NCBI GenBank assembly: GCA_045615065.1
Contig: JAZLEB010000043.1
Location: 1 to 56,918 of the forward strand
Direction of reading: 5' to 3'
Origin: Candidatus Pelethomonas sp.
Lineage (GTDB): Bacteria > Bacillota > Clostridia > Oscillospirales > Oscillospiraceae
DNA: 56,918 nucleotides
Part shown: positions 34,392-50,304 of the stretch, one piece after another
Layout: every line of letters starts with the position of its first letter
How positions within the stretch are numbered: the first letter of the stretch is position 1
Notes under the pieces: generated by a model
The model's input: only the letters and a program-made list of their open reading frames with translations
What the model was told of the DNA's origin: nothing
The model's database searches: none
Position numbers and translations under genes: made by a program

Positions 34392-34485
34392 GATGTGCAG
34401 CAAAAAGCGGCAGAGATTTGTCAGGATCTCTGCTGCTTTTGCTTTTTATGCTACAAAAAATGAACTACCTAACTGGAGGAGCAAC

Positions 34486-36338: not shown

Positions 36339-36343
36339 GCTGA

Positions 36344-36375
36344 CCAATTCCAATTTGACAAAGGAGTGTGAGATT
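36344..36375 (+). repeat. Junction motif copy A (CCAATTCCAATTTGACAAAGGAGTGTGAGATT)
   Basis: It lies immediately between the anti-sigma stop and ATG 36376. Confidence 0.8.
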
Positions 36376-36624
36376 ATGAAGCAATTACACAAGTTTCTCA
36401 AGATATTCATTTTTTTGCAATTAGGCTCTTGTTGTGGTCGTGTGCTTCAAAGGTATCTTGATTTCGTAAATCATCCCGAAATATATGCCTATTACTCTGC
36501 TCCTTGGTATACAGGAATTACCATCACAGTTATTCTTACGGCAATAACTGTTTTGATTACAACGATTGCCTATTTTGTGGTTGGACACTTAATCAAGAAG
36601 AGAGAGCAAAATAAGACAGAATAA
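36376..36624 (+). CDS. 82-aa two-transmembrane-segment membrane protein
   Basis: MKQLHKFLKIFIFLQLGSCC...TGITITVILTAITVLITTIAYFVVGHLI. The TTG-extended form in the ORF track (MTKECEIM...) merely reads through the conserved motif. Confidence 0.55.
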   Translation: MKQLHKFLKIFIFLQLGSCCGRVLQRYLDFVNHPEIYAYYSAPWYTGITITVILTAITVLITTIAYFVVGHLIKKREQNKTE

Positions 36625-36656
36625 CCAATTCCAATTTGACAAAGGAGTGTGATTGT
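36625..36656 (+). repeat. Junction motif copy B (CCAATTCCAATTTGACAAAGGAGTGTGATTGT)
   Basis: It starts 1 nt after the preceding TAA and ends at ATG 36657. Confidence 0.8.
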
Positions 36657-36956
36657 ATGAAAAGATTGATGGCTGTTGCTCTTGTAATGGCTCTGCTCCT
36701 TAGTTTGGTTGCTTGTAGTGGTAAGACTATCGGCAAAATAAGTGGTGCTGAAAATGAATATATCACCATTGATGATGTGAAATATGGCTTAGACGCAGAT
36801 AACGATTTCAGTCAAGCAGACAAAGGAACTTATTTAGGGAAAGTATCAAACGCTAAAATCACGATGAAAGTCTATTCTGTCAAAGGTGATGCCGAAGCAG
36901 AATATATCTATGCTGTTTGGGATTGGGAGGGTGCTTTCTACAAGAAAGAGCAATAA
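36657..36956 (+). CDS. 99-aa lipoprotein
   Basis: MKRLMAVALVMALLLSLVAC lipobox. Confidence 0.6.
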   Translation: MKRLMAVALVMALLLSLVACSGKTIGKISGAENEYITIDDVKYGLDADNDFSQADKGTYLGKVSNAKITMKVYSVKGDAEAEYIYAVWDWEGAFYKKEQ

Positions 36957-36957
36957 A

Positions 36958-36989
36958 CAAATTCCAATTTGACAAAGGAGTGTGATTGT
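36958..36989 (+). repeat. Junction motif copy C (CAAATTCCAATTTGACAAAGGAGTGTGATTGT)
   Basis: It lies directly after the preceding TAA and ends at ATG 36990. It is identical to copy B over 30 nt. Confidence 0.8.
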
Positions 36990-37334
36990 ATGAAAAAGTT
37001 GATAGCATTAGTTTTGGCATTAGTTTGTGTGCTTGGCTTGGTTGCTTGTGGTGCAAAGGAGCAGACAACACCTAACACACCCAATGCAACGATACCTTCG
37101 ATTATGTATGAGGGCAATCTATACAAGACAACAGGCAAACAAATCCCAGCAGAGGTTGATGAAACTGCTATTGTAGGAAACATAAGTTCAGTTGTTCCGT
37201 TATCTCAGTTTCCTACTAATGACGGCGAAGCAAACTTTGGTCAAGTGGGTGACCCGTACGCACTCACAGCAGATGGCTTAGTGGTATTGCTCAATAACGA
37301 ATGGACTTTGTTTGAGCTGTTGGAAGTAGAATAA
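36990..37334 (+). CDS. 114-aa lipoprotein
   Basis: MKKLIALVLALVCVLGLVAC lipobox. The mature part is unrelated to the 99-aa lipoprotein by eye. Confidence 0.6.
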   Translation: MKKLIALVLALVCVLGLVACGAKEQTTPNTPNATIPSIMYEGNLYKTTGKQIPAEVDETAIVGNISSVVPLSQFPTNDGEANFGQVGDPYALTADGLVVLLNNEWTLFELLEVE

Positions 37335-37343
37335 TCTATTAAG

Positions 37344-37361
37344 CCAATTCCAATTGGTCGG
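37344..37361 (+). repeat. Junction motif copy D, closing variant (CCAATTCCAATTGGTCGG)
   Basis: The first 11 nt match copies A-C. It then diverges to TGGTCGG instead of TTGAC-RBS. Confidence 0.65.
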
Positions 37362-37479
37362 GCAGATACGGCGTTCGACCTGCTTTTAGAATACTTCATA
37401 ATGACTAAAACAAAGGCGATCAACTCTATGTGGTTGGTCGCTTTTGCTTTGCCCATTATTGTGAAAGGAGCTGACCCGG

Positions 37480-37797
37480 ATGACAAACGAAAAACTTGAA
37501 AAGCTGAAGCACGACAAGTATGTTGCGAAAAAGAAGTTGACCGCAGCCAAACACAGAGAGAAACAGATAGAAAGTGAGCTGAAGCGGCTGACCAGAAGCG
37601 AGCGTACGCACCGCCTTTGTACTCGTGCCGGAATGTTGGAAGCGTTCTTGCGAGAACCAACCCTGCTGACTGACGATGATGTAATGGAGCTGCTGACCTT
37701 CATATTCCAGAGTAAAGCGGTTCACGAGAAGCTGAATATGCTGATCGAGAACCGAAAAGAAACGGCGACAACGGGAGCTGATGAGCCCTTAGCGTAA
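37480..37797 (+). CDS. DUF3847-like coiled-coil protein (usually the partner of MobA/MobL relaxases)
   Basis: MTNEKLEKLKHDKYVAKKKLTAAKHREKQIESELKRLTRSERTHRLCTRAGMLEAFL... Confidence 0.65.
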   Translation: MTNEKLEKLKHDKYVAKKKLTAAKHREKQIESELKRLTRSERTHRLCTRAGMLEAFLREPTLLTDDDVMELLTFIFQSKAVHEKLNMLIENRKETATTGADEPLA

Positions 37798-37947
37798 GAT
37801 AAGGGCGCAACTATACACCGCCCAAGGCGGTGCGTTGCGTTCTGCCGAAAGCCCCTTGCAGGGAGCAGATGATTTCCGCTGATCCGCTTCAATCATCCAG
37901 GGGAATGAATTCCCCTGCGCTGGCGTTGCCAGCTACCCCTTTGTAGA

Positions 37948-37990
37948 CTCGCTACCTGAAAACGATTATAAATTGTTTTCAGGTAGCGAG
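37948..37990. repeat. Perfect 16-bp inverted repeat with an 11-nt loop (terminator or oriT-associated hairpin)
   Basis: ctcgctacctgaaaac at 37948-37963 and gttttcaggtagcgag at 37975-37990. The trailing T-run is weak (ttctc). Confidence 0.5.
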
Positions 37991-38158
37991 TTCTCAGAAT
38001 AGCTATTTCGTTTTCAACTCGGCTATGTTATACTAAAGTAAACTATAACAGTTAGATAACTTGAATTTGGCTTTGTAAAATTCTAATGTTATCGTTACCC
38101 TTCCTACAAGCAGCCAACTATTTTCCTTTAAGTTTACATTTCTGAAGGAGATTGCACC

Positions 38159-39136
38159 ATGAAGATTTCTCATATCGAAAACGAAGAACTCAGTATGCGC
38201 ATCTATCGGGCTTGTATGGACGCAGGCTTTGATGATTGTGGGATTATTTCCATCGAGGATATGGATACATATATTGCCAATACCCGAAAGCGGATCGAAG
38301 CAGTTCCCGCCAGTGCCGGTTTTTACAAGAACGCGATTTCCGGTACTGAAGAAATCAGAACCCGCTTTCCCTGGTCGAAATCCATTGTAATCTGCCTGTC
38401 CTGGATCGGCAAGTACAAATATCCCGAGGATTTGCAGGGACTGTATGCCAAAGGTTTTTTCATTTCTCGTGACAGCGATAAGAACGGTCCAGAGCATTTG
38501 CGAAAGCACAATCTGGGACGGTGGTTCGATGAAAATCAAATCGAATGGACAGGAACCATCAAGGAGAACGGCTTTGGCATTTGGGGTCTCCGTCATGCTG
38601 CGGAAATAGCGGGCATTGGCATGATCCGCCGGAATAACTTTCTGTACAATGAAGACGGTTCGTGGATAGAGCTGGATAGCTTTTTGATTGGAGAGCATTG
38701 CAGACTTTATCAGGACAAAAAGTTTCCTCCCTGCCCTGCAGGCTGTACCATTTGTCAGAAAGCTTGTCCATCAAGCGCCCTCGGTGCGCCCTACACGCTG
38801 AATCCTTTTCATTGCTTATCCTTTATCAATACATTTGGAAGAGGTATTATACCGGAAGGATTGCGGGAGGAACAGCTTGGAATGTGGATTGTGGGCTGTG
38901 ACGCGTGTCAGGATGCCTGTCCCTTCAATCGCAAGCACGATTGGTCTCAGGGAGAGGACTTCCCCGGTCTTAACGATCTTGTTGAACGAATGCAAGCGCA
39001 AAATGTACTGACTGCCAGCGATGAAGAATTGGTGCAAATCTGCCGCCGAACAGCGGATCATCTTTCTGAAAAAGATGTGGATGTACTGAGAGCAAGTGCC
39101 GGACGAGCTCTGCGCATGAAGGCAAAAGCTGATTAA
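38159..39136 (+). CDS. Epoxyqueuosine-reductase (QueG)-like / reductive-dehalogenase-related 4Fe-4S protein
   Basis: Two ferredoxin-type cluster motifs are CPAGCTICQKACP and CDACQDACP. The N-terminal part has the DUF1730-like layout. The exact function is not assignable from sequence alone. Confidence 0.6.
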   Translation: MKISHIENEELSMRIYRACMDAGFDDCGIISIEDMDTYIANTRKRIEAVPASAGFYKNAISGTEEIRTRFPWSKSIVICLSWIGKYKYPEDLQGLYAKGFFISRDSDKNGPEHLRKHNLGRWFDENQIEWTGTIKENGFGIWGLRHAAEIAGIGMIRRNNFLYNEDGSWIELDSFLIGEHCRLYQDKKFPPCPAGCTICQKACPSSALGAPYTLNPFHCLSFINTFGRGIIPEGLREEQLGMWIVGCDACQDACPFNRKHDWSQGEDFPGLNDLVERMQAQNVLTASDEELVQICRRTADHLSEKDVDVLRASAGRALRMKAKAD

Positions 39137-39166
39137 GGCGAATAACAACTCAACCATAACAGCGTG

Positions 39167-39193
39167 ACAATTCCATTTGACGGAGGTGCTATC
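39167..39193 (+). repeat. Junction motif copy E (ACAATTCCATTTGACGGAGGTGCTATC)
   Basis: A degenerate copy of the A-C motif, immediately upstream of ATG 39194. Confidence 0.6.
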
Positions 39194-39577
39194 ATGCGTA
39201 TAGAACATATAGCAATGTATGTAAACGACTTAGAAAAGGCACGGACTTTCTTTATGAAATACTTTGGTGCCACTTCGAATGAAGGATATCACAATGCAAA
39301 AACAGACTTTCGTTCTTATTTTTTGAGTTTCGACCAGGGAGCACGGTTGGAAATTATGAACAAGCCCCAGATGTCTGACACAGAAAAAGGACCGACTCGC
39401 ACAGGCTACATCCATATCGCTTTCAGCCTTGGAAACAAAGCCGCCGTTGATGAACTCACGGAAAAGCTGAGAGTTGATGGCTACGAAGTAATCAGCGGCC
39501 CAAGAACAACAGGTGATGGCTACTATGAAAGCTGCATTGTGGGAATTGAGGGAAACCAGATTGAGATAACCGTATAA
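39194..39577 (+). CDS. VOC/glyoxalase-bleomycin-resistance-family protein
   Basis: MRIEHIAMYVNDLEKARTFF...GYIHIAFSL...GPRTTGDGYYESCIVGIEGNQIEIT is a typical paired beta-alpha-beta-beta-beta module. Confidence 0.8.
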   Translation: MRIEHIAMYVNDLEKARTFFMKYFGATSNEGYHNAKTDFRSYFLSFDQGARLEIMNKPQMSDTEKGPTRTGYIHIAFSLGNKAAVDELTEKLRVDGYEVISGPRTTGDGYYESCIVGIEGNQIEITV

Positions 39578-39594
39578 CAAATGCCAATGGTCGG
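39578..39594 (+). repeat. Junction motif copy F, closing variant (CAAATGCCAATGGTCGG)
   Basis: It lies directly after the TAA of the VOC gene. It shares the CCAAT(T)GGTCGG ending with copy D. Confidence 0.55.
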
Positions 39595-39648
39595 CCTGAT
39601 TGCCCATGCGACAACTCAATAACCACAGTATTCTAAGCGGTACAGCAA

Positions 39649-39681
39649 GCAGGAAATCTGAAAAGGTTTCCTGCTTTTTTT
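39649..39681 (+). terminator. Rho-independent terminator
   Basis: gcaggaaa / tttcctgc stem with a 10-nt loop, followed by TTTTTTT at 39675-39681. Confidence 0.7.
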
Positions 39682-39714
39682 GCGCCCAAATTAGATAAGA
39701 AGGAGATGATAATT

Positions 39715-41304
39715 ATGCCCAATCCGCACTTTGATATTTCAATCACACAGCGAAGCAAGGGCAAGTCTGCTGTTGCCGGAGCAGCATATCAGAGTGGCGA
39801 TAAACTGTTTTCCGAGTACGATCAAAAATACAAAAACTACACGAGGAAGCAAGGCATCGTTTACACGGAAATCATGCTTCCTGCGAATGCACCACCCGAA
39901 TATGCCGATAGAGAAACGTTGTGGAACTCAGCCGAGGAAATTGAGAAGCAGTGGAACTCTCAGCTTGCCAGACGCTTTGTTCTTACATTCCCACGAGAGA
40001 TTCCGAGTGAGCACTATCCGCAGATGGTCAGAGACTACTGCATGGAGCATTTTGTGTCCAAGGGAATGTGTTGCGACTTCGCAATTCACGATCCCAGTCC
40101 GCCGGGACACAACCCTCATTGTCATGTGATGCTCACAATGAGGGCAATGGACGAGCATGGAAAATGGCTGCCCAAGAGCCGAAAGGTTTATGACCTTGAC
40201 GAGAACGGTGAGCGCATCAGACTTCCCTCCGGCAACTGGAAATGCCACAAGGAAAACACCGTGGACTGGAACGAGCAGTACCACGGAGAGGAGTGGAGAC
40301 ATGGCTGGGAAGTTGTTCAGAATCGCTATCTTGAAATGATCGGCAGTGCCGAGAGAGTGGATCTTCGTTCCTATGAACGGCAAGGACTGGACACAATCCC
40401 GACCGTTCATATGGGGCCTGCGGTCACGCAAATGGAGCGGCGAGGTGTAAAGACCAACATTGGAAATCTGAACCGCGACATCCGAGCTGCCAACAGAATG
40501 ATGAGAGCAATTCGGAACACGATCAGCAGTTTGCGAGATTGGATAGCTGCAATCCTCGAAGCAAGAAAAGAACTTCTTGCCGAACTGGACGCTGCAAATC
40601 AATCTCCCTCGCTCTCTGCTCTGCTCAATGATTATATGGATCTGCGCAAGGCAGAACGTAGCGAGTGGTCTGAATACGGACAGCGGAAAGGTTCTCTTGC
40701 TGACTTGCAGGCTGTGTCAAAGGCCGTCAGTTACCTCAGCGACCACGACCTTACTACGCTGGAAAACCTCGATGAAAGTCTGGAAGCTCTGAATACAAAA
40801 GTCAGTACTGTCCGTGCGGAAATGAGGAAAGCCGAGAAGAGACTGAAAACGATTGACAACATCCAACGAGCGGTTGCTACTTGCCAAACGCACAAGGTCA
40901 TCCATGACAAGTATGTAAAGATTGGCTGGAAAACAGCGCAGAACGCTTTTGCAGAGAAGCATGAATCAGAGCTGGAGGCATACAACAAGGCGTTCCGCTA
41001 TTTGAAAAAGCAAGGTGTCGATCTGTCTGTTGATTTGAAAAAGCTTCGAGCAGAAAGCGATGATCTGACACGAAACATCAAACTAAAAGAAACGGAGTTG
41101 AGAACAATTCAAAACGAACTGAAACCGATGGAAGAAATTCGTCACTGGGTCGGCAAGGTTCTCAGTGCCAACATTGACACGGTTGAAAAGAAAGCTGAGC
41201 CCAGACATTCGATCAGAGAAATGCTGGCGGATCTTCAGCCGCAATCTCGCAAATCCCACACCACGCATCAGCAACAAAAAGATTCTATCAATAAGGAGCA
41301 TTAA
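39715..41304 (+). CDS. MobA/MobL-family (MOBQ-type) relaxase
   Basis: N-terminal SAVAGAAYQSG holds the catalytic Tyr region. The histidine triad is AIHDPSPPGHNPHCHVML. It has a long coiled-coil C-terminus. Start trimmed to the ATG 9 nt after AAGGAG. Confidence 0.85.
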   Translation: MPNPHFDISITQRSKGKSAVAGAAYQSGDKLFSEYDQKYKNYTRKQGIVYTEIMLPANAPPEYADRETLWNSAEEIEKQWNSQLARRFVLTFPREIPSEHYPQMVRDYCMEHFVSKGMCCDFAIHDPSPPGHNPHCHVMLTMRAMDEHGKWLPKSRKVYDLDENGERIRLPSGNWKCHKENTVDWNEQYHGEEWRHGWEVVQNRYLEMIGSAERVDLRSYERQGLDTIPTVHMGPAVTQMERRGVKTNIGNLNRDIRAANRMMRAIRNTISSLRDWIAAILEARKELLAELDAANQSPSLSALLNDYMDLRKAERSEWSEYGQRKGSLADLQAVSKAVSYLSDHDLTTLENLDESLEALNTKVSTVRAEMRKAEKRLKTIDNIQRAVATCQTHKVIHDKYVKIGWKTAQNAFAEKHESELEAYNKAFRYLKKQGVDLSVDLKKLRAESDDLTRNIKLKETELRTIQNELKPMEEIRHWVGKVLSANIDTVEKKAEPRHSIREMLADLQPQSRKSHTTHQQQKDSINKEH

Positions 41305-41366
41305 GCACCTGCCGTTTTCTTCTGGAAAATGTCAGGTGCTTTTTTGTTTCCCGAAAGGAGCCGCAA

Positions 41367-42005
41367 ATGAGTGTATTTGATTCCCTCAAACAAAATGTGA
41401 CTGCCAGACAGGCAGCAGAACTTTATGGCATCCCCGTCAACCGCTACGGCATGGCTGTCTGTCCTTTTCACGATGACAAGAATCCAAGCATGAAAGTGGA
41501 TAGTCGCTTCCATTGCTTTGGGTGTCAGGCAGATGGCGATGCCGTTGATTTCGTCTCCCGGCTGTTCGGTTTGTCGAGCAAGGATGCTGCGATGAAGTTA
41601 GCTGCCGATGTCGGCATCAGCTATGAGAACCACCGCAAGCCGATAGCCAAGCCGCACATTCGGGAACCCACTCCCGAACAGAAGTATCAGCAGGAAGAGA
41701 TCCATTGTCATAGGGTGTTGTCCGATTATTACCACCTACTTCAAGGATGGAAAAAGGAATACGCGCCCAAGCAGGCAGATGAAGAATGGCATCCACTATT
41801 CATTGAAGCTGTGCAGCAAGAAAGCTACATTGAACATCTTCTCGATGTCCTGTTGTGCGGCTCGTTGGAGAAGCGGAAAGAACTCGTAACCGGACAGCGG
41901 AAAGAGGTGATGAAACTGGAACAGCGTGTCCGGGAATTGTCTGTCAAATCATCTGCACACCGTAGAGTCGGTAAAAGAAAAACCAGAAGCACACCAGAAC
42001 GGTAA
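41367..42005 (+). CDS. CHC2 zinc-finger (DnaG/TraC primase N-terminal-like) protein
   Basis: CPFHDDKNPSMKVDSRFHCFGCQADGDAVDF. Confidence 0.75.
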   Translation: MSVFDSLKQNVTARQAAELYGIPVNRYGMAVCPFHDDKNPSMKVDSRFHCFGCQADGDAVDFVSRLFGLSSKDAAMKLAADVGISYENHRKPIAKPHIREPTPEQKYQQEEIHCHRVLSDYYHLLQGWKKEYAPKQADEEWHPLFIEAVQQESYIEHLLDVLLCGSLEKRKELVTGQRKEVMKLEQRVRELSVKSSAHRRVGKRKTRSTPER

Positions 42006-42019
42006 GGAGGAAATATTTG

Positions 42020-42172
42020 ATGAATGCTATTTCAGCTAATGCCCCGACCACCTACAAGAAGATGATCGGGCAGACCACCTATGTAGTCAGAGTTCACTTC
42101 AGCGAGAAGAGCAAGGACACACTGGCAGATAAAATCAAGCGTCTGCTGACGGAGGAGGTGGCAAAGATGTGA
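42020..42172 (+). CDS. 50-aa TnpW-like small protein
   Basis: Below the ORF-track cutoff; read by hand. It translates as MNAISANAPTTYKKMIGQTTYVVRVHFSEKSKDTLADKIKRLLTEEVAKM with a GGTAAGGAGG RBS. It resembles the transposon-encoded TnpW family as I remember it. Confidence 0.5.
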   Translation: MNAISANAPTTYKKMIGQTTYVVRVHFSEKSKDTLADKIKRLLTEEVAKM

Positions 42173-42184
42173 TTCTTTGAAAAA

Positions 42185-42200
42185 TGATTAAAAAGTCCTT
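42185..42200. repeat. Right terminal inverted repeat of the nested element
   Basis: TGATTAAAAAGTCCTT, the partner of 32132-32148. Confidence 0.6.
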
Positions 42201-42214
42201 GACATTTCGTTTCA

Positions 42215-43036
42215 GGCAAGACAGCTAAGTCTATCCTCATTTCCTGCGGTGCGCGTCTTGCGCCCTTTGATATTCAGGAACTGCGGGAGCTGACGGCGTA
42301 TGACGAACTGGAGCTGGACACTCTTGGCGACCAAAAGACAGCCCTCTTTCTCATCATGAGCGATACGGACTCAACATTCAATTTTCTGCTCTCCATGTGC
42401 TATACCCAACTGTTCAATCTGCTGTGCGAAAAGGCAGACGATGTTTACGGTGGTCGATTGCCTGTCCATGTGCGCTGTCTGATCGACGAGGCGGCGAATA
42501 TCGGGCAGATCCCGAACCTTGAAAAGCTGGTGGCGACGATCCGCAGCCGTGAGATCTCAGCTTGTCTGATCCTACAGGCACAAAGTCAACTCAAAGCGTT
42601 GTATAAGGATAATGCTGATACGATTATCGGCAATATGGACTGCTCCATTTTCCTCGGCGGTCGTGAGCCGGGTACGCTGAAGGAACTTTCTGCGGCACTC
42701 GGCAAGGAAACTGTGGATACCTACAACACCGGTGAAAGCCGTGGTCGTGAGGTTTCCCACTCGCTCAACTACCAGAAGCTCGGTCGAGAGCTGATGTCAC
42801 AGGACGAATTGGCGGTGCTGGATGGAAGAAAGTGTATCCTCCAGCTTCGCGGCGTCAGGCCGTTCCTGTCGGACAAATATGATCTGACCAAACATCCCCT
42901 ATACCGTTACACAGCCAACTACGACAAGAGAAACGCATTGGACATTGAACGTTTCCTGTCCCATAACCTCAAGCTCCGACCGGAGGATGCTTTTGAGGTG
43001 TACTGCGCAGACCTCTCCGGTGTAGCCGTTGGCTGA
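42215..43036 (+). pseudogene. VirD4/TraG-type coupling protein, C-terminal fragment
   Basis: It is in phase with the N-terminal fragment. It reads GKTAKSILISCGARLAPFDIQELRELTAYDELELDTLGDQKTALFLIMSDTDSTFNF...VHVRCLIDEAANIGQIP (Walker B/DEA)...ISACLILQAQSQL. Confidence 0.85.
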
Positions 43037-43340: not shown

Positions 43341-43409
43341 TAGCGGCTTTCTCAAATCTGCCGGGATGTCGCATGATTGCGGCATCCCGGTGAAAGGAGG
43401 GACAACCAA

Positions 43410-44279
43410 ATGGAATACTTGTGGAACAAGATTACAGAGTGGCTCAAGGAATTGCTTGTAGGTGGTATCACCAGTAATCTCTCCGGTATGTTTGAGGCGA
43501 CAAATCAGAAAGTTGCGGAGATCTCCGGCGAGGTCGGGCTGACACCGCAGGCGTGGAACGCCAGCATCTTCAACATGATCCAAAATCTGTCTGAAACCGT
43601 GATTGTTCCCATTGCCGGTGCAATACTGGCTTTCGTGATGACTCTTGAATTGATCCAGCTCATCACAGACAGAAATAATCTTCATGATGTGGATACTTGG
43701 ATGTTCTTCAAATGGGTGTTCAAATCTGCCTGCGCCGTTCTCATTGTTACAAACACATGGACTATCGTGATGGGCGTGTTCGATGCGGCGCAAAGCGTGG
43801 TTTCCCACGCATCCGGCGTCATCATTGGTGATACAAGTATTGACATATCATCCGTCATATCTGACATGGAGACGCGGCTTATGGAAATGGATATTGGCCC
43901 GTTGTTTGGTCTCTGGTTTCAGTCAATGTTTGTCGGTATCACCATGTGGGCGCTGACCATCTGCATCTTCATCGTCATCTACGGTCGTATGATTGAGATA
44001 TATCTTGTCACATCCATCGCGCCCATCCCTATGGCGACGATGCTCGGCAAGGAATGGGGCGGCATGGGGCAGAACTATCTTCGTTCTTTGTTCGCCCTCG
44101 GCTTCCAAGCCTTTCTTATCATTGTGTGCGTAGCGATCTACTCTGTACTGGTGCAGAATATCGCTGTGGGTTCGGACATCAGCGGTGCGATCTGGACTTG
44201 CATGGGATATACGGTGCTGCTGTGTTTCTGCCTGTTTAAGACAAGCAGTCTTGCAAAATCTGTATTCAACGCCCATTAA
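43410..44279 (+). CDS. VirB6/TrbL-like polytopic membrane protein (CD0415/CD1112 family)
   Basis: Start trimmed to MEYLWNKITEWLK (AAAGGAGGG RBS). Five to six transmembrane segments, in the conserved position before PrgI/VirB4. Confidence 0.7.
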   Translation: MEYLWNKITEWLKELLVGGITSNLSGMFEATNQKVAEISGEVGLTPQAWNASIFNMIQNLSETVIVPIAGAILAFVMTLELIQLITDRNNLHDVDTWMFFKWVFKSACAVLIVTNTWTIVMGVFDAAQSVVSHASGVIIGDTSIDISSVISDMETRLMEMDIGPLFGLWFQSMFVGITMWALTICIFIVIYGRMIEIYLVTSIAPIPMATMLGKEWGGMGQNYLRSLFALGFQAFLIIVCVAIYSVLVQNIAVGSDISGAIWTCMGYTVLLCFCLFKTSSLAKSVFNAH

Positions 44280-44293
44280 CGGAGGTGAATATC

Positions 44294-44725
44294 GTGGCGT
44301 ATGTCAATGTTCCCAAGGACTTGACCAAAGTCAAGACCAAGGTGCTTTTCAATCTCACAAAACGACAGCTCATTTGCTTTAGCGGCGGACTCCTCATGGG
44401 AGTACCGCTTTTCTTTTTGCTCAAAGGCGTAACCGGAGCCAGCGTGGCAGCGATGGTGATGATCCTTGTTATGCTGCCTGCGTTTCTGCTTGCCATGTAT
44501 GAGAAAAACGGTCAACCGCTGGAGGTCATTCTTCGCAATCTTCTTCGCGTCTGTTTTCTGAGGCCGAAACAGCGCCCTTATAAGACAAATAACTATTATG
44601 TCGTGCTTGAACGGCAGGCACGGCTTGAACAGGAGGTGTATCAAATTGTCCACAGAAAAAAGACTGGATCGCGCGCAGCGGCAGCAGATCAATGCCGCCA
44701 TTGCCAAAGCCAGAAGGATGAATAA
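44294..44725 (+). CDS. PrgI-family (VirB3-like) membrane protein
   Basis: GTG start after GGAGGTG. (M)AYVNVPKDLTKVKTKVLFNLTKRQLICFSGGLLMGVPLFFLL. The 3' ~80 nt overlap the VirB4 start in another frame, so the true end is uncertain. Confidence 0.6.
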   Translation: MAYVNVPKDLTKVKTKVLFNLTKRQLICFSGGLLMGVPLFFLLKGVTGASVAAMVMILVMLPAFLLAMYEKNGQPLEVILRNLLRVCFLRPKQRPYKTNNYYVVLERQARLEQEVYQIVHRKKTGSRAAAADQCRHCQSQKDE

Positions 44726-47462
44726 AAAAGAGCTGTCCGCACAGGACAGCATTGCGTATCAGCGTATGTGGCCTGACGGTATCTGCCGTGTTACTGATAC
44801 GCACTATTCCAAAACAATTCAGTTCCAGGACATCAACTACCAGCTCTCTCAGAATGAGGACAAGACTGCAATCTTTGAAGCGTGGAGCGATTTTCTCAAC
44901 TACTTCGACAGCTCTGTGCAGTTCCAACTTTCCTTCGTAAACCTGTCCGCATCCGAGGAGACTTTTGCCAAAAGCATCGACATCCCCCTTCAGGGTGATG
45001 CGTTTGATAGCATTCGCACAGAGTACGCTGCCATGCTGCGCCGTCAGCTCGCCCGTGGCAACAATGGTCTCATCAAGACCAAGTATCTGACCTTTGGTGT
45101 AGATGCAGAGAACCTTCGTACCGCCAAGCCGCGCCTTGAGCGAATCGAAACGGATCTGCTCAACAACTTCAAGAGGTTGGGTGTCAGTGCGGAGCCGCTG
45201 GACGGACATGGTCGGCTGCGTGTTCTCCATGACATTCTGCGTATGGATGAAATGGAGCCGTTCCGATTCTCGTGGGACTGGTTGGTGCCGTCCGGTCTGT
45301 CCACCAAGGATTTTATTGCTCCCAGTTCCTTTGAGTTCAAGACCGGAAAGCAGTTCACCATGGGACGAAAGCTCGGCGCAATAAGTTTTGTGCAGATACT
45401 CGCACCGGAACTGAATGACCGAATGCTGGCTGACTTCCTTGATATGGAGAGCAGCGTTGTAGTCAATCTCCATGTGCAGTCGCTGGATCAGGTCAATGCC
45501 ATCAAGATGGTCAAGCACAAGATTACTGACCTCGACAAGAGCAAGATTGAGGAGCAGAAGAAAGCAGTCCGTGCCGGTTACGATATGGACATCATTCCCA
45601 GTGACCTCGCCACCTACGGTACAGAAGCCAAAAAGCTTTTGCAGGATCTCCAGTCCCGCAATGAGCGTATGTTTCTGCTGACTTTCCTTATTCTGAACAC
45701 AGCAGATACCCAGCGTCAGCTCGACAATAATATCTTTCAGGCATCCAGCATCGCCCAGAAGTATAACTGTCAGCTTACGCGGCTGGACTTCCAGCAGGAG
45801 GAAGGACTGATGAGCAGTTTGCCCCTCGGTGTAAATCAGATCGAGATTCAGCGCGGACTCACTACCTCCAGCGTTGCAATCTTCGTGCCATTTACCACGC
45901 AGGAACTGTTCCAGACCGGAAAGGAAGCGTTGTACTACGGCATCAATGCTCTGTCCAACAACCTCATCATGGTTGATCGCAAACTGCTGAAGAACCCCAA
46001 TGGACTGATTCTTGGTACACCCGGCTGTCTCGCCGGTGATACCCGTGTGCGTTTGGCGGACGGCAGCACAGCAACCCTTGCCAATATGGTGGAGTGGGGT
46101 GTGGAGACGATGTTAGTGAAGGCATATAACGAGGAATCCAGGGAAATCGTGAATGCGGTTGCCCGTGATATCCGCATTGAAAAATATGTGGATCGGCTTT
46201 GGACATGCCACTTTGCAGACGGCTCAAAGCTTTGCTGTACCGGCACGCACCTCATCATGGATGATCAAGGCGACTACATCGAAGCGGAGAAGATCCGCGA
46301 GGGTCAGCTGCTCAGCGGCGGTCAAATCGTCAGCCGGGTGTCAGTACAGACGCTTCCGGAGAAAGTCCCTGTCTATGACATGAGCGTTCCGCACCATCTC
46401 AATTTCTTGTTGGAAAACGGTCTGGTCGTTCATAACAGCGGCAAGTCCTTCAGCGCAAAGCGTGAGATCACCAACGCATTCCTGCTCTGCCCCGAGGACG
46501 ACATTCTCATCTGCGACCCGGAGGGCGAGTACACGCCGCTGGTGGAGCGGTTGGACGGACAGATCATCAAGCTGTCGCCTACGGGTAAGGGCTATGACGG
46601 TGAGCCGTGCTACATCAATCCGTTGGATCTGACTCTTGATTACAGCGATGATGAAAACCCTCTGTCGCTGAAATCGGACTTCATTCTCAGTCTGTGTGAG
46701 TTGATCGTCGGCAGCAAGGATGGACTTGCACCCGTTGAGAAAACCGTCATCGACCGATGTGTGCGGCTGATCTACCGCGACTACCTCAACGATCCGCGAC
46801 CGGAGAACATGCCGATTCTGGAGGATCTGTACAATGCGCTCCGTGCACAAGATGAAAAGGAAGCGCAGTTTGTGGCAACGGCTCTGGAAATCTATGTCAG
46901 CGGTTCTCTGAATGTGTTCAACCACCGCACCAATGTCAACATTAACAATCGCATCGTCTGCTATGACATTAAGGAGCTGGGTAAGCAGCTCAAGAAGATC
47001 GGTATGCTCATTGTGCAGGATGCGGTGTGGAATCGAGTCACCATCAACCGCGCCCTGCACAAGACTACGAGATACTATATGGATGAGTTTCATCTGCTCT
47101 TGAAGGAGGAGCAGACTGCTTCGTACAGTGTCGAGATCTGGAAAAGATACCGTAAATGGGGCGGCATCCCGACCGGAATAACGCAGAATGTCAAGGATTT
47201 GCTGGCCTCTCGCGAGGTGGAGAATATCTTTGAAAACTCCGACTTCGTGTATATGCTCAATCAGGCATCCGGCGACCGCCAGATCCTCGCCAAACAACTG
47301 AATATTTCTCCTCATCAGCTCTCGTATGTCACCCACAGCGGTGAAGGTGAAGGGCTGCTTTTTTATGGCAACACGATCCTGCCCTTCATCGACCGTTTTC
47401 CCAAGGACACGGAGCTGTATAAGGTCATGACCACCAAGCCCCAAGAGGTGGCTCAGGAATGA
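44646..47462 (+). CDS. VirB4-like conjugative ATPase (CD1110 family) containing a mini-intein
   Basis: TTG start 7 nt after GGAGGTG gives (M)STEKRLDRAQRQQINAAIAKARR...SAQDSIAYQRMWPDGICRVTDTHYSKTIQFQDINYQL. Walker A is split as GTPG/intein/SGKS. Walker B is RYYMDEFHLLL. Confidence 0.9.
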   Translation: MSTEKRLDRAQRQQINAAIAKARRMNKKELSAQDSIAYQRMWPDGICRVTDTHYSKTIQFQDINYQLSQNEDKTAIFEAWSDFLNYFDSSVQFQLSFVNLSASEETFAKSIDIPLQGDAFDSIRTEYAAMLRRQLARGNNGLIKTKYLTFGVDAENLRTAKPRLERIETDLLNNFKRLGVSAEPLDGHGRLRVLHDILRMDEMEPFRFSWDWLVPSGLSTKDFIAPSSFEFKTGKQFTMGRKLGAISFVQILAPELNDRMLADFLDMESSVVVNLHVQSLDQVNAIKMVKHKITDLDKSKIEEQKKAVRAGYDMDIIPSDLATYGTEAKKLLQDLQSRNERMFLLTFLILNTADTQRQLDNNIFQASSIAQKYNCQLTRLDFQQEEGLMSSLPLGVNQIEIQRGLTTSSVAIFVPFTTQELFQTGKEALYYGINALSNNLIMVDRKLLKNPNGLILGTPGCLAGDTRVRLADGSTATLANMVEWGVETMLVKAYNEESREIVNAVARDIRIEKYVDRLWTCHFADGSKLCCTGTHLIMDDQGDYIEAEKIREGQLLSGGQIVSRVSVQTLPEKVPVYDMSVPHHLNFLLENGLVVHNSGKSFSAKREITNAFLLCPEDDILICDPEGEYTPLVERLDGQIIKLSPTGKGYDGEPCYINPLDLTLDYSDDENPLSLKSDFILSLCELIVGSKDGLAPVEKTVIDRCVRLIYRDYLNDPRPENMPILEDLYNALRAQDEKEAQFVATALEIYVSGSLNVFNHRTNVNINNRIVCYDIKELGKQLKKIGMLIVQDAVWNRVTINRALHKTTRYYMDEFHLLLKEEQTASYSVEIWKRYRKWGGIPTGITQNVKDLLASREVENIFENSDFVYMLNQASGDRQILAKQLNISPHQLSYVTHSGEGEGLLFYGNTILPFIDRFPKDTELYKVMTTKPQEVAQE
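46026..46436 (+). other. Mini-intein (137 codons) inside the VirB4 Walker A motif
   Basis: CLAGDTRV is block A, CCTGTHLIM is block B, VPVYDMSVPHHLNFLLENG is block F and LVVHN|S is block G with the +1 Ser. The flanks GTPG and SGKSF join to form a P-loop. Confidence 0.85.
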
Positions 47463-49180
47463 AACGGGAGCCGCGTTTACAGTTTACCGATGAGGAACGA
47501 GCATCCCCAGAGCTAAAGAAAGCAGTACAGAAAGCGGACAAAGCTGCGGCGAAAGCTGACAAGGCGCAGAGCAGGATGCCGACGAAAAAGGTGCTTACCA
47601 AGGAGCGCAGTACCGATCCCGCTACCGGAAAAGTCAAGTCCCGGCTTCGCTTTGAGGAGATTGAGAAGAAACCGCCATCCAAGCTGACTCATATCGCCGC
47701 AGATGCGCCTGTCAATGCTCTTTCCGTGCACCTCCACCGTGAGGTGCGGCAGAGCGAGGAAGATAATGTGGGCGTGGAGTCCGCGCACAAAATCGAAGAA
47801 GCTGCAGAGAGCGGCGGACGGTTGATACAATCCGCACACCGTGCCCATCAGCTGAAGCCTTACCGTGCATCTACCCGTGCCGAGCGACAGCTGGAAAAGG
47901 CAAATATTTCTGCCTTGCAGAAGAAAGCTCAGATGGAGCATCCGGCCAGCAATCCCTATTCCAAATGGCAGCAAAAGCAAACGATCAAAAAGCAGTATGC
48001 TGCTGCCAAGTCCGGTAAAACAGCCGACCGCGCGAAAGCAGGCGCGGAAGCGGCCAAGAAAGCAGTGGAACAGGCGAAAAAGGCTGGGCAGTTTGTGTGG
48101 CAGCATAGAAAAGGATTCGCCATTGCTGCCGCTATATTCCTCATGCTGGCGTTTTTGCTGAATGGTCTGTCCTCCTGTTCTGTCATCATAGAGGGCGTTG
48201 GTTCCGGTATCACTGCCAGCACCTACGCTTCCCGGGATGAGGACATACTGGGCGCGGAAGAAGCTTACTGCTCCATGGAGCAAGCTTTACAGGAGTATCT
48301 GGACAACTATGAGAGTAACCACGACTACGATGAGTACATCTTTGATCTGGACAGCATTGATCATGATCCCTATGTTCTGATCTCTATTCTCTCTGCGCTC
48401 CATCCCGGTGAGTGGACGCTGGATGAGGTGCAGGGTACACTCCAGATGATCTTTGATAAGCAGTATATTCTCACTGAGGAAGTAACAAGCGAAATACGGT
48501 ATCGTACGGAGACTCGCGTCGGATACCGGGTGGTGACAGACCCGGACACCGGGCAAAGCCGCCTTGTCCCATATCTGTATGAGGTTGAAGTTCCGTATCT
48601 CTACTACATCTGCACGATCACGCTGGAAAACTTCGATCTCAGCCATGTGCCGGTCTACATTATGAGCGAAGAACAGCTTGGAATGTACGCCACCTATATG
48701 GCTTCGCTGGGCAATCGCCCCGACCTGTTCCCGGACTCCGAGTACATTGATCGCTACATCGAGGGCGGTTATCTGGAGTATGACATCCCGGAAGAAGCGC
48801 TGGAAGATGAGGTGTTTGCCGCAATGATCGCGGAAGCGGAGAAGTATCTGGGCTACCCCTATGTCTGGGGCGGCAGCAGTCCGTCCACTTCATTCGACTG
48901 CTCCGGGTTTGTGAGCTGGGTCATCAACCATTCCGGTTGGAATGTGGGCAGGTTGGGGGCGCAGGGACTGTACGGTATCTGTACGCCGGTGTCGGCATCC
49001 ACTGCCAGACCGGGCGATCTCGTATTCTTCGTTGGGACGGACGATGTGGAGGGCATTTCCCATGTAGGCATCTATGTTGGAAATGGGATGTTTATCCATT
49101 GCGGAAACCCCATCTCTTACGCAAATCTGAATTTAAGTTATTGGCAGGAGCACCTGTATTGCTATGGTCGCCTGCCCTAA
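47459..49180 (+). CDS. Membrane-anchored NlpC/P60 cell-wall hydrolase (VirB1 analogue, CD1108 family)
   Basis: ATGA start/stop overlap with VirB4. Central transmembrane segment is FAIAAAIFLMLAFLLNGL. The C-terminal part is YLGYPYVWGGSSPSTSFDCSGFVSWV...ISHVGIYVGNGMFIHCG. Confidence 0.85.
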   Translation: MKREPRLQFTDEERASPELKKAVQKADKAAAKADKAQSRMPTKKVLTKERSTDPATGKVKSRLRFEEIEKKPPSKLTHIAADAPVNALSVHLHREVRQSEEDNVGVESAHKIEEAAESGGRLIQSAHRAHQLKPYRASTRAERQLEKANISALQKKAQMEHPASNPYSKWQQKQTIKKQYAAAKSGKTADRAKAGAEAAKKAVEQAKKAGQFVWQHRKGFAIAAAIFLMLAFLLNGLSSCSVIIEGVGSGITASTYASRDEDILGAEEAYCSMEQALQEYLDNYESNHDYDEYIFDLDSIDHDPYVLISILSALHPGEWTLDEVQGTLQMIFDKQYILTEEVTSEIRYRTETRVGYRVVTDPDTGQSRLVPYLYEVEVPYLYYICTITLENFDLSHVPVYIMSEEQLGMYATYMASLGNRPDLFPDSEYIDRYIEGGYLEYDIPEEALEDEVFAAMIAEAEKYLGYPYVWGGSSPSTSFDCSGFVSWVINHSGWNVGRLGAQGLYGICTPVSASTARPGDLVFFVGTDDVEGISHVGIYVGNGMFIHCGNPISYANLNLSYWQEHLYCYGRLP

Positions 49181-49196: not shown

Positions 49197-49436
49197 ATGA
49201 ATCCCAAGATCCCTAAGCTCCGTGAGGAGCTGAATAAAAACAGAAGCAAGATTACCGAGTTGCAGGCAAAGAATCGAGAGCTGGAGAAAAAGCTTCGTGA
49301 ACTGGAAGATACCGACATCATCGGCATGGTGCGTGAGCACGGCATGAGTATGGAGGAGTTCATTGAGCTGTTCCACAGGATGCATGGCGCACAGTCTACC
49401 ACCAGCAAGGAGGTGATTCGTCATGAAGCTGTTTAA
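49197..49436 (+). CDS. DUF4315-like coiled-coil protein
   Basis: MNPKIPKLREELNKNRSKITELQAKNRELEKKLRELEDTDIIGMVRE... Confidence 0.6.
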   Translation: MNPKIPKLREELNKNRSKITELQAKNRELEKKLRELEDTDIIGMVREHGMSMEEFIELFHRMHGAQSTTSKEVIRHEAV

Positions 49437-50304
49437 GCTGCGCGTTCTGCCCGGACTGCTGATTGCTGTGCTGTGCGTTGCAACATTTTCCATCACCGCA
49501 TTTGCCAGCGATGGTGGTTACTATGCCTCCAATGAGAATGAAGCCGAAACGCCCCCGGATGCCATCGAGGATATTACGATTTCTACCGAAAATGTGGGGC
49601 TGGAAAGCGATGGCAGCAACGCTACCACAGAGGTTGATGGCGAGGAGGTCGATCTGGACTCTTTCTTCAACAACCTTTTTGATATTTTCGGTGGCACGGC
49701 CGCGCTGACCCCTGTGGGCAATCTGACACTGATCGACGACATCTTGCAAAATGAGAATACAACCAATGTGGAGAGCGTGGAGAACGAACTGAAAAGCAAA
49801 CAGTTCATCACCGTCCAGAGCAAGAACGGTAATTACTTCTACATCATCATCGACCGCAGCGGCGATACAGAAAATGTCTACTTCCTCAACCTTGTGGATG
49901 AAGCTGATCTGTTGGCACTGATGGAGGATGGAGAACAGCCGCCTGCCGTTTGTTCCTGCAAGGACAAATGCTTTGCAGGTTCTGTCAATACTGCTTGTGA
50001 TATCTGCGCTGTCAATATGACTGAGTGTGTCGGTAAGGAACCGGAGCCTGTGGAGCAGGAAAAGCCTATTGAGGAACCCAAGGAAGAACCTGCCAAGGAG
50101 AACAACATGGGCGGCGTGGTTATTGCTATTCTGATCCTCGCTGCAGGCGGAGGCGCGGCCTATTACTATTTTGTTGTGAAGAATGGCACGAAGTCCAACG
50201 GAAAGAACCGCGATGACGATGAGTACGACAAAGACGGCGAGGAATACGCCGAGTTTGAGCGGTACGAACCGGAGGACGAGGATACGGAGGATGATGGGGT
50301 ATGA
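49423..50304 (+). CDS. DUF4366-like (CD1107 family) secreted, C-terminally anchored protein
   Basis: Signal peptide is MKLFKLRVLPGLLIAVLCVATFSITAFA. It also has KQFITVQSKNGNYFYIIIDRSGDTENVYFLNLVDEADLLAL, a Cys cluster, the transmembrane segment VVIAILILAAGGGAAYYYFVV and an acidic tail. Confidence 0.65.
   Translation: MKLFKLRVLPGLLIAVLCVATFSITAFASDGGYYASNENEAETPPDAIEDITISTENVGLESDGSNATTEVDGEEVDLDSFFNNLFDIFGGTAALTPVGNLTLIDDILQNENTTNVESVENELKSKQFITVQSKNGNYFYIIIDRSGDTENVYFLNLVDEADLLALMEDGEQPPAVCSCKDKCFAGSVNTACDICAVNMTECVGKEPEPVEQEKPIEEPKEEPAKENNMGGVVIAILILAAGGGAAYYYFVVKNGTKSNGKNRDDDEYDKDGEEYAEFERYEPEDEDTEDDGV

Follow-up and report, generated by a model that had tools for sequence, protein, structure and literature searches.

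A predicted class-1 mini-intein in the Walker A motif of a VirB4-like conjugation ATPase from a gut Clostridia element

The VirB4-like gene and its insert

The window (the whole stretch of DNA analyzed, 56,918 nucleotides) carries a gene for a VirB4-like conjugal transfer ATPase whose P-loop is split by 137 codons, which raises the question of what this insert is and how a working ATPase could be made from the gene. Based on the list of open reading frames and the NCBIfam model NF045971, the precursor gene of the CD1110 family, insert included, was placed at 44718..47462 on the + strand. The reading frame ends at 47462 and has several candidate starts: ATG 44598 (954 aa), 44646 (938 aa), and the ATG at 44718 computed for the 914-aa protein P0001, which overlaps the PrgI reading frame by 8 nt. 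Position 1 of the NCBIfam profile falls at ~44739. An earlier note on this DNA had described a 938-aa VirB4/CD1110-type protein; the family identity held, while the length is one of these three. The ambiguity does not affect the intein finding. The frame is open through all 914–954 codons. NF045971 (VirB4-like ATPase, CD1110 family; equivalog cut-off of 325 bits) matched the unspliced reading frame with 1105 bits in two stretches separated by the insert. When the insert was removed in silico, the score rose to 1131 bits and the match became a single stretch covering the full profile (1–752/752). The Pfam model PF19044 (P-loop_TraG) covered residues 633–890 of the 954-aa reading frame.

The insert occupies 46026..46436 (+) and translates in frame into 137 stop-free residues (CLAGDTRVRL...ENGLVVHN), exactly those quoted in the earlier note. 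The upstream coding part, or N-extein (44718..46025, +), ends in NPNGLILGTPG, and its last four residues, GTPG (46014-46025), supply the first half of Walker A. The C-extein (46437..47462, +) opens with a Ser at the +1 position (46437-46439) and the second half of the motif, SGKS (46437-46448), reads on as SGKSFSAKREI and contains the rest of the ATPase domain. The Walker A signature GxxGxGK[ST] is complete only without the insert, as GTPGSGKS, which is the same as in the intein-less homologues. P-loops are a known hot spot for inteins.

All the class-1 hallmarks named earlier were present in the insert. Block A (C1-L-A-G-D-T6, CLAGDT) lies at 46026..46043 (+), and its Cys1 acts as nucleophile in the N-S acyl shift. 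Block B (T72-G-T-H75, of the TxxH type) lies at 46239..46250 (+) and is preceded by C71 (46236-46238). Block F (P115-V-Y117-D118-M-S-V-P122, PVYDMSVP) lies at 46368..46391 (+) and aligned with the corresponding block of the Spl DnaX mini-intein (7cfv). Block G (N131-G-L-V-V-H136-N137, NGLVVHN) lies at 46416..46436 (+); the penultimate His and terminal Asn of this block serve succinimide formation. Profile searches, one of the checks named in the earlier note, agreed with the motifs. PF14890 (Intein_splicing) matched with E=5.6e-11 and 42.9 bits (gathering cut-off 35.8), TIGR01445 with 28.8 bits (cut-off 24.5), and TIGR01443 (intein_Cterm) matched residues 115–137 with 23.4 bits (cut-off 15.6). 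The Pfam search of the insert returned no domain besides Intein_splicing. The above-cut-off scores of the three models exclude a chance resemblance, and the best sequence match in the PDB was the Spl DnaX mini-intein (7cfv, E=1.8e-4).

An AF2 model of the exact window sequence formed a single all-beta domain with a pLDDT of 92.9 and a pTM of 0.87. The top Foldseek matches in the PDB were inteins (Npu/Ssp DnaB, Npu DnaE, Mtu RecA) with TM scores of 0.75–0.85 and E-values down to 7e-10. Among the matches listed, all belonged to the HINT superfamily, mostly inteins together with bacterial intein-like (BIL) and Hedgehog autoprocessing domains. The model thus predicts a HINT fold with confidence. 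Mini-inteins consist of the splicing domain only, about 130–160 aa; the 137 residues here form a single domain with no LAGLIDADG or HNH insert between blocks B and F, which leaves no room for a homing endonuclease, as the earlier note had proposed. Spl DnaX (7cfv), Npu DnaB (4o1r), Ssp DnaB (1mi8, 6frh) and Mtu RecA (2in0) have the same size (137–150 aa) and the same HINT horseshoe, with TM scores of 0.75–0.85. The Spl DnaX intein further shares a C-T-G-x-H block B and a VYD...NF..NGL.VHN C-terminus with the VirB4 intein. Identity to these mini-inteins of known structure was 17–26%, so the VirB4 intein has no close relative among characterized inteins. It is minimal by nature, whereas the mini-inteins of Ssp DnaB and Mtu RecA were engineered by deletion.

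Two other assignments were rejected. Class-3 inteins carry a WCT triad, begin splicing with a Cys of block F as nucleophile and usually lack Cys1 or Ser1; the VirB4 inteins, by contrast, have an invariant Cys1, and the window intein has no Cys in its block F (PVYDMSVP). A tolerated structural insert does not fit a sequence that combines Cys1, TxxH, blocks F and G with HN, Ser+1, intein profiles, a HINT fold and homologues that lack it seamlessly.

The conjugative element around the gene

The VirB4-like gene belongs to an ICE-type secretion gene set (VirB4, coupling protein, VirB6-like protein, PrgI and a cell-wall hydrolase) that was present in conserved order. Upstream in the same operon are a TrbL_2/VirB6-like gene (43377..44279, +; Pfam PF19478) and a PrgI gene (44285..44725, +; Pfam PF12666), an order kept in the relatives L001–L004. 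Downstream are a CD1108 family gene with an NlpC/P60 hydrolase domain (47459..49180, +), whose start overlaps the VirB4 stop, and a CD1107-like gene (49423..50304, +), the pair being assigned by NCBIfam NF045974/Pfam PF14283. Synteny with L001 and L004 spans ~23.9 to 54.6 kb. The left flank looked chromosomal, with MatE, an HD-domain protein and a sigma-factor fragment. Within the window, there was no backbone integrase, right element end or tRNA, and the sole recombinase belongs to a second, nested element. Consequently, the element is a probable rather than a proven ICE.

The nested element interrupts the gene for the VirD4-like coupling protein (T4CP). An N-terminal T4CP fragment lies at 31142..32200 (+), supported by Pfam T4SS-DNA_transf (45–205) and by tblastn and blastn against L001; compared with the intact 595-aa T4CP of L001, its backbone homology stops near 32118. 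The C-terminal part lies at 42217..43036 (+; reading frame called at 42356-43036), matched the NCBIfam CD1115 profile (255–441/442) and corresponded in tblastn to aa 322–595 of the L001 protein with 88% identity. Between them are ~10.1 kb (32119..42216, +) that are absent from L001 and L004, in which T4CP is intact. This element encodes a large serine recombinase (32197-34086), a MobQ relaxase (39706-41304), a CHC2 zinc-ribbon protein (41367-42005), an ECF sigma factor and a 4Fe-4S protein. An extension of the N-terminal tblastn match to aa 367 would imply that 46 aa are duplicated on the two sides of the 10-kb insertion. The junctions show a break at ~32118/42217 with GG on both sides, and the extension was therefore read as a probable low-similarity tail. 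Selfish elements are clearly nested at this locus: one conjugation gene of the element houses an intein, and a serine-recombinase element divides its T4CP gene.

The topoisomerase gene of the window copy is also frameshifted, in an A-rich tract; frameshifts in homopolymer-rich tracts are typical of assembly errors. Intact counterparts occur among the intein-bearing elements, for T4CP in L001 and for the topoisomerase in L002 and L003. With the T4CP gene split and the topoisomerase gene frameshifted, splicing alone would not make the window copy transfer-competent.

Intein-bearing and intein-less relatives

The earlier note had predicted a clean gap of 137 aa at the P-loop when the protein is aligned with intein-less homologues. 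This gap was found in 117 of the 124 alignable CD1110-homologue representatives (clustered at 50% identity), which align to residues 1–460 and 598–938 of the query. All 112 close intein-less clusters (82–90% identity) read straight through from GLILGTPG into SGKSFSAKREI. The same held at the DNA level, where the intein-less locus L004 aligned to 44295-46025 and then to 46436-49390, an exact 411-nt indel. Two proteins were set aside. P0122 looked like a member of the intein clade that lacks the intein, but is a chimera of a VirD4 N-terminus and a VirB4 C-terminus (deletion or misassembly) and was kept solely as an illustration of the intein-less junction. The 128-aa "insert" of P0135 is apparently a duplication, both borders of which read GLILGTPG followed by SGKSFSAK.

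Inteins at this VirB4 site were found in at least 120 database clusters (120/120 of the top clusters, all at the common site). Cys1 was invariant across these 120 intein-bearing homologues and Ser occupied the +1 position in every one of them, as it did at 18 of 19 loci in species genomes. Of those 19 gut Clostridia loci, 18 were intact. The scan behind them was built from five closer inteins and used two peptide patterns. The count of 19 species is therefore a minimum, and the scan may have passed over related inteins located in other host genes. The intein-bearing VirB4 protein is abundant in public collections, where it is already annotated with PF14890, and one such protein (P0003) occurred identically on 6 contigs. 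Intein-less alleles at ~90% extein identity were at least as abundant (P0285 with 6,463 members; P0316 on 271 contigs).

The survey of related elements suggested earlier revealed a presence/absence polymorphism. Intein-bearing and intein-less states were interleaved among close VirB4 alleles: a simple NJ tree of 206 such alleles gave at least 12 changes between the two states, a count that recombination in the extein gene could inflate. The most likely source of these changes is repeated gain and loss of the intein by homologous recombination between co-resident related elements, and not an endonuclease of its own.

Inteins were ~60% identical to one another, compared with ~84% for the exteins, and the window intein is a divergent allele, at most 66–68% identical to any other found. 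Among nine inteins from three lineages (35–66% identity), C1, G4, T6, C71, T72, H75, Y117, D118, N131, G132, H136, N137 and S+1 were invariant, as was V121 in block F; the block A residues C1, G4 and T6 were likewise invariant in 33 unique close alleles. The dN/dS was 0.31 for the intein and 0.05 for the exteins, values that are rough because dS was near saturation (1.2–1.5). The invariant catalytic residues and an intein dN/dS of ~0.3 suggest that splicing competence has been maintained, although selection on the window allele may already be relaxed given the split T4CP and frameshifted topoisomerase genes. It would seem that the intein has long been carried as a passenger by the element family, and it evolves faster than its host gene.

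Proposed splicing, other readings and a second insert

Taken from sequence and fold together, 46026-46436 is very likely a class-1 mini-intein in the VirB4 Walker A motif, and a single precursor would splice to give the mature ATPase. One precursor would be translated which, with its P-loop split by 137 residues, should be unable to bind ATP. Splicing would begin with an N-S acyl shift at Cys1, aided by Thr72 and His75 of block B, followed by transesterification onto the hydroxyl of the +1 Ser, cyclization of Asn137 aided by His136, and an O-N shift that would restore a native peptide bond. The product would be an ATPase of 777–801 aa with an intact GTPGSGKS. We infer both that splicing occurs and that the precursor is inactive, and it is a sound inference, already drawn in the earlier note, that transfer of the element depends on splicing.

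Inteins in this host family are already on record. Table 3 of the survey of Novikova et al. (2016, Mol Biol Evol 33:783; PMC4760082) lists five VirB4 (COG3451) inteins from Firmicutes and Proteobacteria, and the survey treats them as inteins of the mobilome and of secretion systems, which may point to the paths by which inteins spread horizontally. These inteins share the host family (T4SS VirB4 ATPase) and the phylum Firmicutes with the window intein, a comparison that the table allows by count and not by site. The possible novelty raised in the earlier note therefore did not survive. Neither a splicing study nor a population analysis of VirB4 inteins, nor a dedicated description of the window intein, turned up in the searchable literature. 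Among the classic P-loop inteins, those in DnaB-b, MCM-a, RFC-S-a, Pho RadA and the mycobacteriophage TerL1-a/b are described in three papers (PMC4760082; PMC5050341; PMC4513877), and the classic site is between the invariant Lys and the Thr/Ser (GK/T; Kelley et al. 2016, PMC5050341). Like these, the VirB4 intein is of class 1 and interrupts Walker A in an oligomeric nucleic-acid-motor NTPase whose ATP binding would need splicing, and the TerL1 and VirB4 hosts are both carried by mobile elements. In contrast to the classic site, it is inserted three residues upstream (GxxG/SGKS), with that Ser as the +1 nucleophile, and its host is a conjugation ATPase instead of a replication, recombination or packaging enzyme. 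Since inteins of this type abound in public data and are of a well-known kind, the finding is solid and fairly ordinary; with the P-loop hot spot known and VirB4 inteins already listed, the current understanding of inteins is unchanged. Where the intein is present, splicing would have to precede formation of the mature conjugation motor in this very common family of gut Clostridia elements. The VirB4 intein offers a simple handle on the question of whether an intein in the ATPase of a mobile element is carried along neutrally or has a regulatory role. Compact, naturally minimal and available in many variants with a Ser +1 junction, it is also a possible source of new splicing tools.

It is conceivable, though we consider it unlikely, that the intein is a conditional post-translational switch through which redox state, temperature, substrate or partner proteins gate ATPase maturation and transfer. 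Because it interrupts the catalytic P-loop of an ATPase that is essential for transfer, splicing necessarily comes before function, and the intein persists under purifying selection. C71 is invariant and C70 is common, which together with Cys1 might permit a disulfide trap in strict anaerobes. Environmentally regulated P-loop inteins have a precedent in the RadA intein reported from Pyrococcus horikoshii (Topilina et al. 2015, PMC4513877), and the survey also touches on such regulation in its discussion (PMC4760082). However, C71 precedes the inward-pointing block B Thr and probably points away from the active site. The abundance of intein-less alleles, interleaved with intein-bearing ones, indicates that the element family works without an intein, and a dN/dS of 0.3 with conservation centered on the splicing blocks is what would be expected of a selfish intein that spares its host gene. 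Slightly more doubtful still are two specific roles: a conjugation switch such as a redox trap of Cys1 and the neighboring block B cysteines, by which oxygen would halt ATPase maturation, or, as an alternative to a switch, a barrier (incompatibility device) between competing related elements. A switch or barrier role, if true, would explain the high frequency and repeated regain of an endonuclease-free mini-intein among near-identical elements.

An improbable reading is that the element is degenerating, its VirB4 gene being in effect a pseudogene and the insert the remnant of an intein that has decayed and no longer splices. The other lesions of the window copy, the divergence of its allele and a truncated intein/VirB4 remnant in Pseudoflavonifractor phocaeensis (L021) would be consistent with decay. 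However, the window allele retains an open frame and all the residues that class-1 splicing is known to require, its exact sequence gave the confident AF2 model, and the extein dN/dS is about 0.05. As for the lesions, the serine-recombinase element could excise from T4CP, and the topoisomerase gene is frameshifted in the kind of homopolymer-rich tract where assembly errors typically arise. BIL domains are typically found in variable regions of non-conserved proteins, lack a +1 nucleophile and favor cleavage over ligation. Such a domain, or another HINT domain that cleaves or rearranges its host without ligating the flanks, is a very improbable reading here: BIL structures were good matches (Clostridium thermocellum 2lwy, TM 0.82–0.87; Tetrahymena BIL2), but the fold is common to all HINT domains, whereas the insert interrupts the protein's most conserved motif, ends in HN before Ser+1, scores above cut-off with N- and C-terminal intein models, and has flanks that rejoin to a perfect Walker A.

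Besides the mini-intein, larger inserts of 251–339 aa were present at the same GTPG/SGKS point in four distant relatives (P0208, P0223, P0226 and P0247). They share the insertion point, Cys1, the terminal Asn and the +1 Ser with the mini-intein, and follow the pattern CVDxxTEF at the start and TGN or TRN immediately before SGKS. Unlike the mini-intein, they have a penultimate Gly or Arg instead of His, an SPxH block B and an additional middle region of ~150–200 aa. Similarity between the two inserts was undetected by phmmer and not significant by hhalign, the Pfam and NCBIfam intein models did not match the larger insert, and single-sequence AlphaFold (pLDDT 35) gave no usable model. A profile of the larger insert did match the AceL NrdHF-1-1 intein (6zgq) across block B with E=2.9e-6, and it is on this one PDB profile match that we regard the larger insert as probably a second intein.

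An intein in the Walker A motif of the VirB4-like ATPase

The insert proposed in the earlier note was borne out by translation. Window positions 46026–46436 on the plus strand encode 137 stop-free residues (CLAGDTRVRLADGS...KLCCTGTHLIMDD...VPVYDMSVPHHLNFLLENGLVVHN), in frame within a long plus-strand ORF ending at 47462, with ...NPNGLILGTPG directly upstream and SGKSFSAKREI... directly downstream. Where the VirB4 ORF begins is ambiguous. From the first ATG (44598) it would encode 954 aa and from 44646, the start used in the earlier note, 938 aa; the called protein (P0001, 914 aa) has a computed start at ATG 44718, where it overlaps the end of the PrgI ORF by 8 nt. The choice among these starts does not matter to the intein finding. 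The profile for the CD1110 family of VirB4-like conjugal transfer ATPases (NCBIfam NF045971) matched the ORF with the insert in place in two separate stretches (1105 bits); after in silico removal of the 137 residues the match rose to 1131 bits and formed a single stretch covering profile positions 1–752 of 752.

Using the insert alone as query, three independent intein models, each judged by its curated threshold, gave significant matches: Pfam PF14890 Intein_splicing (E = 5.6e-11, 42.9 bits, cut-off 35.8), NCBIfam TIGR01445 for the intein N-terminal region (28.8 bits, cut-off 24.5) and NCBIfam TIGR01443 for the C-terminal region (23.4 bits, cut-off 15.6). The closest solved structure by sequence was the Spirulina platensis DnaX mini-intein (7cfv, E = 1.8e-4), which aligned over block B (CTGNH vs. 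CTGTH) and blocks F/G (VYD...NF..NGL.VHN). An AlphaFold2 model of the insert with five flanking residues on each side, built from an alignment of 32 homologues, was confident and consisted of a single all-beta domain (mean pLDDT 92.9, pTM 0.87). Among the matches listed, Foldseek against the PDB returned only HINT-superfamily structures, mostly inteins together with BIL and Hedgehog autoprocessing domains. These included Npu DnaB, the Ssp DnaB mini-intein, Npu DnaE, NrdJ-1 and Mtu RecA, with E-values down to 7e-10 and TM-scores of 0.75–0.85 among the top matches. An insert of 137 residues with one modelled domain is too small to hold a homing endonuclease, as the earlier note had supposed. With Cys1 present and no Cys in block F, the intein belongs to class 1, and class 3 was rejected.

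Nine inteins from three lineages sharing only 35–66% identity were compared, and C1, G4, T6, G13, C71, T72, H75, Y117, D118, N131, G132, H136 and N137 were invariant, with Ser always at the +1 position. Profiles, fold, Cys1 and these splicing residues uphold the class 1 hallmarks read from the sequence, and the anatomy lies at a site where the flanks rejoin as a canonical Walker A motif. Both the observation and the interpretation in the earlier note are correct.

Intein-less relatives, distribution and constraint

When 1.84 billion 50%-identity representatives were searched exhaustively with HMMER, 2,894 relatives reached E ≤ 1e-30. Among the best 150 of these, most alignments fell into two stretches, with breaks at the intein borders (query residues 460 and 598). 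Of the 124 representatives alignable on both flanks of the junction, 117 had no insert and an uninterrupted GxxGSGKS, two carried a homologous 136-aa mini-intein, four carried an unrelated larger insert of 251–339 aa, and one (P0135) had an apparent duplication. A second search, with the spliced sequence as query, found 112 intein-less clusters at 82–90% identity, all reading GLILGTPG/SGKSFSAKREI across the junction. DNA of the intein-less locus L004 aligned to window positions 44295–46025 and then 46436–49390, a difference of exactly 411 nt. The predicted gap at the P-loop of the homologues is therefore clean in 117/124 representatives, in all 112 close clusters and in the L004 DNA. One 840-aa protein from the representative search (P0122) is a chimera, in which a VirD4-like N-terminus of ~290 aa (TM segments and GGSGSGKT) is joined to an intein-less VirB4 part from about residue 245; it represents either a large deletion between the coupling protein (T4CP) and VirB4 genes or a misassembly.

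The intein is widespread. In the first search, all 120 top matches carried a 136–137-aa insert at the identical site, and a scan of one genome per GTDB species, using two peptide patterns, found at least 19 loci with the intein. Carriers were Oscillibacter, Intestinimonas, Faecousia, Subdoligranulum, Ruminococcus, Pseudoflavonifractor, Lachnoclostridium sp. An138, an Anaerovibrio MAG and unclassified Clostridia or Oscillospiraceae MAGs; roe-deer caecum and water-deer colon were named in the record titles of scanned loci. Eighteen of the 19 loci were intact at GTPG/C...HN/SGKS, and one was a truncated remnant. This remnant (L021:2600-3400, Pseudoflavonifractor phocaeensis An858) is a decayed copy that lacks the VirB4 N-extein and roughly the first 45 intein residues; unrelated stop-containing sequence precedes the remaining C-terminal part of the intein and the C-extein. 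No intein was found in other host genes by the two-pattern scan of species genomes.

Intein-less alleles were at least as abundant, among them the P0285 cluster, with 6,463 sequences, and P0316, which occurred on 271 contigs. The survey of related elements suggested in the earlier note found both states; in a neighbour-joining tree built from 206 distinct close exteins they are interleaved, with at least 12 changes by Fitch parsimony. The nearest neighbours of the window allele, at ~90% extein identity, included both. The mini-intein also occurred in two deep lineages (P0121 and P0142) lying among intein-less ones, with exteins ~37–61% and inteins 35–39% identical to those of the window. Given that the intein lacks an endonuclease, the simplest explanation is repeated gain and loss via homologous recombination between related elements meeting in one cell, and the conjugative element itself would supply the horizontal mobility of the intein.

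Compared with the window protein, the inteins of the 120 top matches averaged 60% identity and the exteins 84–85%. Between the window and the intein-bearing locus L001, dN/dS was 0.31 for the intein and 0.045–0.057 for the exteins, rough values because dS was close to saturation. The GC content of the intein (53.5%) matched that of the host gene. Such figures would be expected from a long-resident intein, which may drift freely as long as it still splices.

Predicted splicing and the condition of the element

Class 1 splicing proceeds by an N-S acyl shift at Cys1, transesterification to the +1 Ser, Asn cyclisation and an O-N shift. Ligation of the exteins would place the junction within the predicted tryptic peptide ...NPNGLILGTPGSGK. 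Walker A integrity is required for VirB4-family function in studied T4SSs; the unspliced precursor would be inactive as an ATPase, and the T4SS would therefore depend on splicing. That the intein acts as a conditional switch on conjugation is very improbable, because intein-less sister alleles are abundant.

The VirB4 gene lies within a conserved T4SS module ordered DUF3801, T4CP, TrbL_2/VirB6-like (43377–44279), PrgI (44285–44725), VirB4, CD1108 with an NlpC/P60 domain (47459–49180), CD1107-like (49423–50304) and topoisomerase III, followed downstream by a 760-aa polyvalent ArdC-N/LPD16/YodL protein (53611–55893) with ArdC-N (anti-restriction), Peptidase_M78/zincin, LPD16, YodL and DUF4316 domains. 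Such polyvalent proteins are typical of those transferred along with DNA in such elements. Synteny of the backbone with L001 and L004 extends from ~23.9 to 54.6 kb, and the left flank is chromosomal-looking (MatE transporter, HD-domain protein, sigma-70 region 3-4 fragment). The sigma-70 fragment is a 161-aa ORF (22650–23135, minus strand) with regions 3 and 4 and without region 2; its missing N-terminal part would face the conjugative backbone, which starts just to the right at ~23.2–23.9 kb. The element may be integrated into a sigma-factor gene, and no tRNA was present in the window. It is probably an ICE, though not proven to be one, since neither a backbone integrase nor a right end lies inside the window.

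Two further genes of this copy are interrupted. The VirD4-like T4CP gene (CD1115 family, 31142–43036), intact at 595 aa in L001 and L004, is interrupted near codon 323, where a 10.1-kb element (~32119–42216) with GG at both junctions is inserted. This element encodes a large serine recombinase (32197–34086; Resolvase, Recombinase, Zn_ribbon_recom and DUF4368 domains), an ECF sigma factor (35101–35670), a 4Fe-4S/QueG-like protein (38159–39136), a MobQ relaxase (39706–41304) and a CHC2 zinc-ribbon protein (41367–42005); it resembles mobilisable elements of the Tn4451/Tn5397 type. The topoisomerase III gene (50483–52535) consists of two overlapping ORFs, in frame 2 to 51214 and in frame 3 from 51159, with the frameshift near 51159–51214 in an A-rich tract of lysine codons. 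The frameshift may be genuine or may be an artefact of assembly; the L001 gene is split at about the same place, and the near-identical intein-bearing loci L002 and L003 have an intact 680-aa gene. Because of the split T4CP and this frameshift, splicing would be necessary yet insufficient for transfer of the window's copy. Otherwise intact intein-bearing elements exist, such as L001 with its full T4CP and L002 and L003 with their topoisomerase, and six contigs encode one and the same intein-bearing protein (P0003). At L004:15912-19644, another serine-recombinase element is nested in a backbone gene of the same element family: the topoisomerase is truncated to 477 aa, and a large serine recombinase (Resolvase/Recombinase/DUF4368) and TnpV come immediately after it.

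Known P-loop inteins and a second insert at the same site

The P-loop is a recognised intein hot spot, as the earlier note stated, with DnaB-b, MCM-a, RFC-S-a, RadA and TerL1-a/b among the examples (PMC4760082; PMC5050341). The 'classic' insertion lies between the invariant Lys and the nucleophilic Thr (Kelley et al., PMC5050341), whereas the window intein lies three residues upstream, at GxxG/SGKS, a small positional variant. Inteins of the VirB4 host family and phylum are already catalogued, since Table 3 of Novikova et al. 2016 (PMC4760082) lists five VirB4 inteins (COG3451, T4SS) in Firmicutes and Proteobacteria; the correspondence covers host family and phylum. The RefSeq entry for the intein-bearing protein (P0059) bears only the name 'VirB4-like conjugal transfer ATPase, CD1110 family [Lachnoclostridium sp. 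An138]', and the protein has a precomputed PF14890 match in the protein collection. Our literature search found no paper analysing or testing this VirB4 intein. In the window, a widespread but uncharacterised VirB4 P-loop mini-intein is represented by a new and fairly divergent allele. Modestly new are its prevalence in elements of gut Clostridia, the way intein-bearing and intein-less forms interleave among near-identical alleles, its non-classic position inside the P-loop, and a second, profile-invisible probable intein at the same VirB4 site in distant relatives.

This second insert, 251–339 aa long and unrelated to the first, was observed outside the window in four distant CD1110 relatives (P0208, P0223, P0226 and P0247), exactly at GTPG/SGKS. 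Its layout is Cys1-VDxxTEF ... SPxH ... CFTVP(T/S)H ... TGN/TRN, then Ser+1. The Pfam and NCBIfam intein models missed it, and a profile built from it matched the AceL NrdHF-1-1 intein (6zgq, E = 2.9e-6). This makes a divergent intein probable, one whose penultimate residue is not His and which has an additional middle domain, possibly an endonuclease or what is left of one.
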